Made by a program: the position numbers and the translations under genes. From NCBI GenBank assembly GCA_964016885.1, contig OZ024742.1:229648001-229712000 (forward strand): a stretch of DNA of 64,000 bases, given 5' to 3'. This document shows, in pieces, positions 51,249 through 52,761 of this stretch. Under the pieces are notes generated by a model that was given only the letters and a program-made list of their open reading frames with translations, had not been told where the DNA came from and searched no databases. The DNA comes from Eledone cirrhosa. Its lineage: Eukaryota. Positions within the stretch are counted from its first letter, which is position 1. Each line of letters opens with the position of its first letter.

Positions 51249-51716
51249 TCGGTTTCAACACACGTTTTCAGATAAAGAATCTTGCTAAACAAATTCAGAA
51301 ACGAAATATATATATTTAAATATATAGGAAAGACAAACGACTAGGCGTGAAGTATAGAATAGCAGTGAAGACTTTAATCAAAGTCCATTCTTTAACACTT
51401 GTTTAGATGATACACACTTTCATAATACATATATGCATATAAATTATATACATATATTTATATATATATATATATATATATATATATATATATATAATTA
51501 AGTTAAAAATGTATATCCACATATGTATACTGAAATACTAGTATGCATATGAATACACACACGTATACATATGTAGATGTACCGAGTTTTTCACTGGTCA
51601 CTTTACTGTGAGTGTCCAGCTATTCTGTATGTAAACACACAGACAAACCGGTTTTTAGAGTCATACTGGTTTTTGAGGAAACACCTTTCCTCTATTCTTC
51701 AGAAAGCCAGGCAAGG

Positions 51717-51761
51717 AATATTGAACTAGTTTCGATGTTGTTACATCTCATCAGCAATATT
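51717..51761 (-). ncRNA. Minimal type I hammerhead ribozyme (family C)
   Basis: AAUAUUG-CUGAUGA-GAUGU aaca ACAUC-GAAA-CUAG-UU-CAAUAUU. Confidence 0.93.
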
Positions 51762-52223
51762 TACCTATCTTCCGGCCTCTCTAGAGAATCGTAAAAGCAC
51801 ATATCGTTATATGCTTTTTCTATGAAAATTAGTAGTGGGCAGACTAATTTGCATAGAGCGTGAGTACGTACCGGTTCAACGGAGACGATAAAAACAAATA
51901 ACGAAACGAAATTAAATTTCGTTTCGTTTGTAACTCACTTTTGTATGACTGACGCTTAAACAATTAAGTTAAAAATGTACATCCACATATGTATACTGAA
52001 ATACTAGTATGCATATGAATATTGTTTAAGCGCCAGTCATACAAAAGTGAGTTACAAACGAAACGAAATTTAATTTCGTTTCGTTATTTGTTTTTATCGT
52101 CTCCGTTGAACCGGTACGTACTCACGCTCTATGCAAATTAGTCTGCCCACTACTAATTTTCATAGAAAAAGCATATAACGATATGTGCTTTTACGATTCT
52201 CTAGAGAGGCCGGAAGATAGGTA

Positions 52224-52268
52224 AATATTGCTGATGAGATTTAACAACATCGAAACTAGTTCAATATT
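52224..52268 (+). ncRNA. Minimal type I hammerhead ribozyme (family C, inverted arm)
   Basis: aatattg ctgatga gattt aaca acatc gaaa ctag tt caatatt; one stem II mismatch. Confidence 0.9.
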
Positions 52269-52761
52269 CCTTGCCTGGCTTTCTGAAGAATAGAGGAAAG
52301 GTGTTTCCTCAAAAACCAGTATGACTCTAAAAACCGGTTTGTCTGTGTGTTTACATACAGAATAGCTGGACACTCACAGTAAAGTGACCAGTGAAAAACT
52401 CGGTACATCTACATATGTATACGTGTGTGTATTCATATGCATACTAGTATTTCAGTATACATATGTGGATGTACATTTTTAACTTAATTGTTTAAGCGTC
52501 AGTCATACAAAAGTGAGTTACAAACGAAACGAAATTTAATTTCGTTTCGTTATTTGTTTTTATATATATATATATATATATATATATATATATATATATA
52601 TATATATATATATATATATATATATATGTGTGTGTGTGTGTGTGTGTGTGTGTGTATTTGTGTGTGTATTCGTGCATGCTTATATGCATCTGAAATATGT
52701 CGAAATATGTGTTAAAATTATGCGCGGTAGTATAAATAAAATAGCGCATAAATTAGTATGA

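Follow-up and report, generated by a model that had tools for sequence, protein, structure and literature searches.

The hammerhead repeats of family C in Eledone cirrhosa are likely, judging from sequence, to carry an internal promoter of the snRNA type. A conserved octamer upstream of their ribozyme matches the promoter box of the host U6, U6atac and MRP genes, which gives the octamer a candidate function and makes it likely that the repeat has a promoter of its own. We propose, with a probability of about 0.55, that this promoter would give rise to read-through RNA that includes the next promoter, that the hammerheads may free monomers or circles from this RNA and that a Penelope enzyme would copy it from two internal sites.

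The window, a stretch of 64,000 nucleotides, contains a family C insertion at 51497-52560 (originally delimited as 51496..52561), which is inverted head to head and flanked by (TA)n runs at 51425..51496 on the left and 52561..52627 on the right. The left arm (51497..52021, minus strand) comprises 1.1 units, is 5'-truncated at the central junction and ends in (TA)n with what we will call the 'short' 3' end, at -208 from the CUGAUGA of the next unit. The right arm (52021..52560, plus strand) comprises 1.2 units and ends in (TA)n with the 'long' 3' end (-134); the two arms differ at 3 positions. The octamer block TATGCAAATTAG, matching the host Pol III promoter box, lies at 51844..51855 on the minus strand of the left arm and at 52130..52141 on the plus strand of the right arm. 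It is followed by an inverted near-octamer, TAATTTTCATA (51821..51831, minus; 52154..52164, plus), and, about 43 nt past the octamer start, by the TATA-like box GCATATAA (51807..51814, minus; 52171..52178, plus). Host spacing would place the start site 23–29 nt upstream of CUGAUGA. The type I hammerhead of the left arm (51717..51761, minus) is intact, with a stem I of 7 bp, a stem II of 5 bp, a palindromic stem III of 2 bp and a predicted cut after GUU, between 51724 and 51723, while in the right arm (52224..52268, plus) a G>T change at 52241 breaks stem II. An internal copy of the tail hairpin with a perfect 13-bp stem is found at 51900..51928 (minus), followed by a T5 tract at 51888-51897, and the internal hairpin of the right arm with its T5 tract spans 52057..52097 (plus). 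Only the right outer end has the ~70-nt 'tail' (52487..52560, plus), consisting of a hairpin (52523-52551) and T5. A frame search over 38000-54000 gave no stop-free frame of at least 100 aa within the insertion, and an Rfam scan of the window returned no matches at gathering scores.

Family C has a unit length of 466 nt and forms tandem arrays with this period. A DNA search of the genome (3.0 Gb in 1,796 contigs) gave 168 matches in the 40 scored of 295 candidates, and among the matches scored those of full length are 96–100% identical and many are in tandem. An exact pattern found at least 6,123 intact ribozyme cores genome-wide, compared to none for a control pattern. The arrays extend to about 15 units in a sample of 105 loci and to about 30 units in pattern searches. 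The RNA of the unit is predicted to be highly folded (-149.5 kcal/mol, z -8.37, a value reached by none of 100 shuffles). Family C is very likely a non-LTR retrozyme.

The ends of the insertions were mapped at 105 loci with family C, which were the first or best listed rather than a random draw. Relative to the next core, nearly all distinct 3' ends (57/60) lie at one of two sites, at -134 or at -203 to -209, so that two fixed ends lie ~70 nt apart on either side of the tail hairpin, and 55 of the 60 run into AT-rich flank. The 5' ends are scattered over 78 positions, 63 of which abut an inverted copy. One long and one short end are found in 25 of 28 complete inverted insertions, the other 3 having one end elsewhere and none having two alike; whenever both outer ends fall at the two sites, one is long and one is short (25/25). 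Family A copies, by eye, end at two homologous places. The 5' ends do not pile up at the hammerhead cut site (0/78, 1.5 expected) or at the predicted start (5/78 near it, 3.5 expected), being spread evenly over the unit, and a role of cleavage in copying is therefore unsupported by the end positions. The available text of PMC8557442 describes Penelope-like elements as having 5'-truncated copies in inverted orientation, a one-sided tail and (TA)n targets, and in Penelope insertion both strands are nicked and extended, two internal start sites define the tail and ribozyme cleavage is not required (PMC11167929). The family C ends match this pattern and so represent a Penelope signature, from which mobilisation by a Penelope-type reverse transcriptase appears likely.

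A decayed Penelope-like element with the same inverted layout is located 250 nt to the left of the family C insertion (45603-51248). It contains RT-like frames (48933-50599, plus), a GIY-YIG-like motif (by eye), a hammerhead core at 51062 and an inverted 5'-truncated copy (45603-47579), and Pfam yields only a sub-threshold RVT_1 match (E 0.005). Since comparison within the window revealed no sequence shared with family C, the adjacency of this element is not evidence of partnership. The window also contains family D (40277-43364), a head-to-head inversion with canonical hammerhead cores at 40359 (minus) and 43282 (plus), AATAAA after the hammerhead and no octamer, as well as a CA/TA-rich 122-nt tandem array of ~15 copies (54664-56528). 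Family B, a 483-nt tandem and inverted array inside the family A array (34837-37115 and 14453-14823), has CUGACGA and lacks the canonical GAAA core; its alignment scores to A or C (25–27) are within those of shuffles.

Family A, to which the original prediction related family C as a distant relative, is present in the window as two units at 33867..34814 (minus; octamers at 34138 and 34651, hammerhead core at 34057), two further units at 37134..38115 (minus) and an older copy at 7752..8144 (plus), ~80% identical to the young ones. The two 27-mers on which the comparison was built do exist, at 51839-51865 (plus) in C and 34130-34156 (plus) in A, with 23 of 27 letters alike by eye, and both families have CUGAUGA ... 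GAAACUAGU(H). The stems are also as described: C has AAUAUUG/CAAUAUU as stem I and GAUGU/ACAUC as stem II, where A has ACGGUG/CAUCGU and AGCU/AGCU; by eye, five pairs are altered on both sides and a U-U mismatch in A corresponds to G-C in C. On the other hand, the statement that most of the unit is hard to align was wrong, as A and C are colinear over nearly the whole unit with 254 of 403 columns identical (63%). The alignment score of 167 is far above that of 200 shuffles (mean 30.0, maximum 53), which upholds common descent.

For the covariation test, 15 real copies representing 7 family groups (labelled C, A, E, G, F, H, I and J) were placed in a sequence-only MAFFT alignment; its rows were 13 of the 18 family representatives and a C row without its 5' arm, with A counted twice. 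In these copies 84.7% of 203 stem cells are paired compared to 65.3% in shuffles, a fraction reached by none of 500 shuffles, and double changes are found in 11 of 14 stem pairs, also with none of 500 shuffles as good. The kinship of the copies inflates the shuffle test, but controls in which the alignment was slid (27–34% paired) agree with it. The number of further pair types is not above that of shuffles in this alignment (170/500). The stems covary across families in a manner that, together with the counts of intact cores, supports selection on the ribozyme fold. Among the first 100 matches listed for family C, one stem II position pairs A with T in 36 and T with A in 64, and by eye it is never unpaired; this swap is a single compensatory event. 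Contigs from four runs of unknown kind cover the family C unit, and three of the four have the same compensatory change in stem II. According to the accessible part of PMC4209133, this form of the type I hammerhead, whose palindromic stem III has only 2 bp, is typical of animals and active as a dimer. The predicted monomer fold of family C hides part of the ribozyme core, and in a predicted two-copy co-fold CUGAUGA is freed and the palindromes pair between the molecules.

On the ribozyme strand the octamer reads ATGCAAAT and precedes CUGAUGA by 100 nt in C and by 88 nt in A. Selection on the octamer had also been claimed from the A/C pair; it is supported, although not by that pair. The 12-nt run containing it is only one of six identical A/C runs of at least 8, and when the A/C match string is shuffled 2,000 times, 44% of the shuffles contain a run of 12. 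Since A and C align throughout and this run is within chance, the pair cannot show selection on the octamer. Conservation per block is likewise fairly even along the pair, from 10/13 to 24/30 with a single dip to 11/30 at an insertion, and it is the comparison of many families that isolates the motif.

Genome-wide, the octamer followed by a hammerhead pattern has 29,037 matches against 2 for a reversed control; without A- and C-type flanks the counts are 2,699 and 3. These counts are of copies and are conditioned on the motif, and therefore we made a hammerhead collection blind to the octamer. As most of the 18 representatives had been found via the octamer, its invariance among them is circular; the octamer-anchored counts and the invariant column block were accordingly rejected as evidence of conservation and replaced by the octamer-blind test. 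The blind loci came from two core-only searches (60 loci, and 60 from their lists) and from 60 evenly spaced 10-kb pieces. A structural hammerhead scan of all loci identified 436 sites in 31 clusters, 24 of which have octamer-blind members. The exact ATGCAAAT is found 68–112 nt upstream in 5 of these 24 clusters; in the same clusters 40 permuted 8-mers average 0.025 and none exceeds 1. With one mismatch allowed (6/24 against a permuted maximum of 6) the test loses discrimination. The likeness between groups of octamer families is ~50–65%, and because 5 of 24 blind clusters have the exact octamer against practically none for permuted motifs, the retention of the octamer across deep divergence is supported by these sequences. 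The 19 clusters without the exact octamer include those of Penelope type, and copies in an old array freely lose it. Upstream of its proximal octamer, family E has two to three more octamer or near-octamer copies, spaced apart, and a further repeat starts with TATGCAAATGAGG and has no hammerhead at the usual distance (minus strand, 2893 in locus L379; also L124). Pairing of the octamer with the region downstream of the ribozyme, which we had considered, is not borne out by the predicted fold of C.

Host genes were found by Rfam family (U6, U1, U2, U5, MRP and U6atac). Five Pol III promoters were chosen as gene-like, namely three types among 32 U6 loci read, one among ten U6atac loci and the one MRP locus, and the remaining U6 and U6atac loci were left out because they looked promoterless. 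Many such promoterless copies sit in (TA)n or beside other repeats and are likely retroposed. All five chosen promoters have TATG(C/G)(A/T)AATNAG at -76 to -78 and TATA at -30, with the exact octamer in three of them and one letter off in two. An octamer-like box is absent from 12 distinct U1/U2/U5 promoters, which have YCAGT (TCAGT) at -55 to -58 and a TATA-like stretch near -30. A distal TTACYTCCCTT is found near -260 in most host promoters of both the Pol III and Pol II classes. Host Pol II snRNA genes have the 3' box AAAAT(C/T)AGAC, and U6, U6atac and MRP genes end in T5–T10.

The block TATGCAAATTAG of C and A fits the host box TATG(C/G)(A/T)AATNAG, and in the repeats the neighbours of the octamer (T before, NAG after) and the presence of a TATA at a fixed distance likewise resemble the host promoter. 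The distance between octamer and TATA is 42–45 in most copies (~43 in C, 39–40 in two F copies), compared to 46–48 in host Pol III promoters, so that the repeats are 3–5 nt shorter and outside the host range. A two-box host model allowing a gap of 40–49 gives 21.3 bits for C and 25.0 bits for A, similarly to host promoters in leave-one-out scoring (19.9–25.0), while Pol II genes score 2.9–12.1 and 7 of 8 octamer-less hammerhead families 4.9–10.4; octamer-less fam6 reaches 15.8 bits, at -174. With strict host spacing C and A score only 12.9 bits. The modelled start is 14–30 nt before the ribozyme core in 17 octamer-bearing representatives. Across 600 kb of evenly spaced DNA, 29 matches to the model reach at least 17 bits, of which only 13 precede a hammerhead (7 of them in one array), and therefore the model is enriched there rather than specific.

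In family C the TATA is a weak one, CATATAA, and CCAC stands in place of a decayed YCAG; a clear TATA is missing from H and I copies. In A, E, G and F1 a YCAG is found at octamer+16 and 24–29 nt before TATA (TCAGC in A and G), and host Pol II genes have TCAGT ~26 nt before the TATA-like box. As this YCAG is at about the Pol II distance from TATA, the promoter layout looks hybrid. A Pol II model gives 15.0 bits for family E (0/60 shuffles), while C (6.4) and A (1.7) score elsewhere in the unit and not significantly. The distal element TTACYTCCCTTG, found near -260 in two of the U6 promoters, does not occur in C or A even with 2 mismatches allowed, and the host Pol II 3' box is absent from both.

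A 310-nt hammerhead array that we call family K (G000:C1:5387900-5391000) has a distal element right after the ribozyme. In place of the octamer it carries the host distal element TTACTTCCCTTG, with CCAGT-TATAAG before the next ribozyme, although the Pol II model gives only 6.0 bits (16/60 shuffles). On its sequence, family K is a second case of borrowed host snRNA signals. A wider picture, which we offer tentatively and hold at somewhat below even odds, is of a superfamily of ribozyme retroelements, with tens of thousands of members, that may have captured host snRNA promoter signals more than once, as octamer-TATA in A, C, E, F, G and J and as distal element-TCAG-TATA in K. The C lineage would then be a hybrid of Pol III box and Pol II core whose ribozyme keeps the upstream promoter within its own RNA, and the inverted insertion would represent two cDNAs with start sites fixed for each nicked strand.

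In vertebrates a POU factor and SNAPc act at snRNA promoters. In the mechanism that we propose the octamer and TATA would recruit this host machinery, and transcription would begin ~15–30 nt before the ribozyme core and read into the following units. Paired (dimeric) hammerheads could excise unit-length RNA containing the next promoter, which may circularise. The Penelope enzyme would nick both strands of AT-rich DNA and, with either an uncut multimer or a circle as template, start one cDNA at each of the two sites on either side of the tail hairpin, and the two cDNAs would produce an inverted insertion with the tail on one side.

What if the repeat is instead a true U6-type Pol III unit, producing a ~350-nt RNA with a single ribozyme that begins shortly upstream of the ribozyme and ends at the hairpin and oligo-T of the long 3' end, with arrays arising by occasional read-through? 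The box is found in 5/5 chosen host Pol III promoters and in 0/12 of Pol II, and the long 3' end is preceded by T5 in C and by T5–T7 in most A copies listed, just as host genes end in T5–T10. However, such an RNA would lack the promoter, and yet the 5' ends are evenly distributed instead of gathering at the start; arrays reach ~15 to ~30 units, a second T5 is found inside the family C unit, the octamer-TATA spacing is 3–5 nt short and the two fixed 3' ends are explained by internal initiation of Penelope (PMC11167929). We therefore consider such a unit unlikely. For the read-through of our main reading we lean towards Pol II rather than Pol III, by a small margin.

Still more doubtful is the possibility that the octamer is retained for a role in the RNA (in a hairpin arm or protein site) or as a generic POU enhancer, its likeness to U6 being incidental. 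The octamer block does pair with the nearby TAATTTTCATA in the predicted fold of C, this 11-mer is identical in A, inverted partners can be seen by eye in J and F copies as well, and the whole unit is predicted to be highly folded (z -8.4). But the octamer is constant between families while its partner varies or is missing (E, G, H, I), whereas ribozyme stems swap pairs freely, and the flanking letters and the set distance to TATA match the host promoter as well. Very improbable, in our opinion, is that the octamer is a passenger from a common ancestor in repeats transcribed only by read-through from neighbouring DNA. The chance level of the 12-nt A/C run (P 0.44) and the free loss of the octamer in an old array would fit this, but the exact octamer recurs in 5/24 blind clusters only ~50–65% alike, its position is fixed relative to the ribozyme, and decay after insertion is expected under any model. 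The internal promoter with Penelope copying thus remains our preferred reading.

The retrozyme class is already known, as is an snRNA promoter in a hammerhead satellite, that of newt. New here are the octamer-blind test, the correction on the alignability of A and C and the one-long/one-short rule. Among the listed titles, our literature search gave no report on the snRNA promoters of cephalopods or on repeats of this kind with an snRNA-type promoter, though preprint supplements may bear on this; it covered PMC13652810 and PMC13282606, and the available portion of the latter is without the words 'ribozyme' and 'promoter'. For retrozyme transcription the literature, in the text available, proposes Penelope mobilisation and names no promoter, newt satellite 2 being the sole snRNA-type case reported there. 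Several divergent families that keep the host box make the question testable by point mutations and 5'-end mapping. The first-pass map of host U6-type and U1-type promoter boxes should be useful for small-RNA expression, and the one-long/one-short rule represents a genomic constraint on Penelope integration for in-vitro systems.

In the accessible text of PMC7229834 and bioRxiv 10.64898/2026.07.22.740005, animal non-LTR retrozymes share with family C tandem low-GC units of a few hundred bases with one type I hammerhead each, a lack of coding capacity, a self-paired predicted fold and the presence of Penelope-like elements in the same genome. No internal promoter is described in these portions, and in the former 'octamer' is absent and 'promoter' occurs only as T7, in contrast to the candidate promoter of C. 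Penelope-like elements, as far as the available excerpts describe them, share with C the inverted 5'-truncated copy at the 5' end, the tail at one end and the (TA)n or AT-rich targets (PMC8557442), as well as a hammerhead with a short palindromic helix III and predicted dimer action (PMC4209133), while C has no ORF and a tail of ~70 nt instead of 30–40. The strict pairing of one long and one short end in C (25/25) differs from in-vitro insertion, where there was no strand difference in start site (PMC11167929).

The Schistosoma Sm-alpha promoter has tRNA-type A and B boxes, and the newt satellite 2 promoter has an octamer and a PSE. The conserved signals in C differ from tRNA-type boxes. Sm-alpha, described as Pol III and SINE-like in the available text of PMC6765202, shares with C the order of promoter and then hammerhead in tandem units, with the upstream unit driving the next. 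Newt satellite 2 (cited in the accessible part of PMC2220036), whose transcripts are given as of Pol II origin in the same portion of PMC6765202, is likewise a hammerhead repeat with an internal snRNA-type promoter, which is predicted here. Unlike in the newt, as far as those texts describe it, several divergent families were compared here with the host's own genes, and the box, which is close to TATA, is characteristic of the host Pol III genes.
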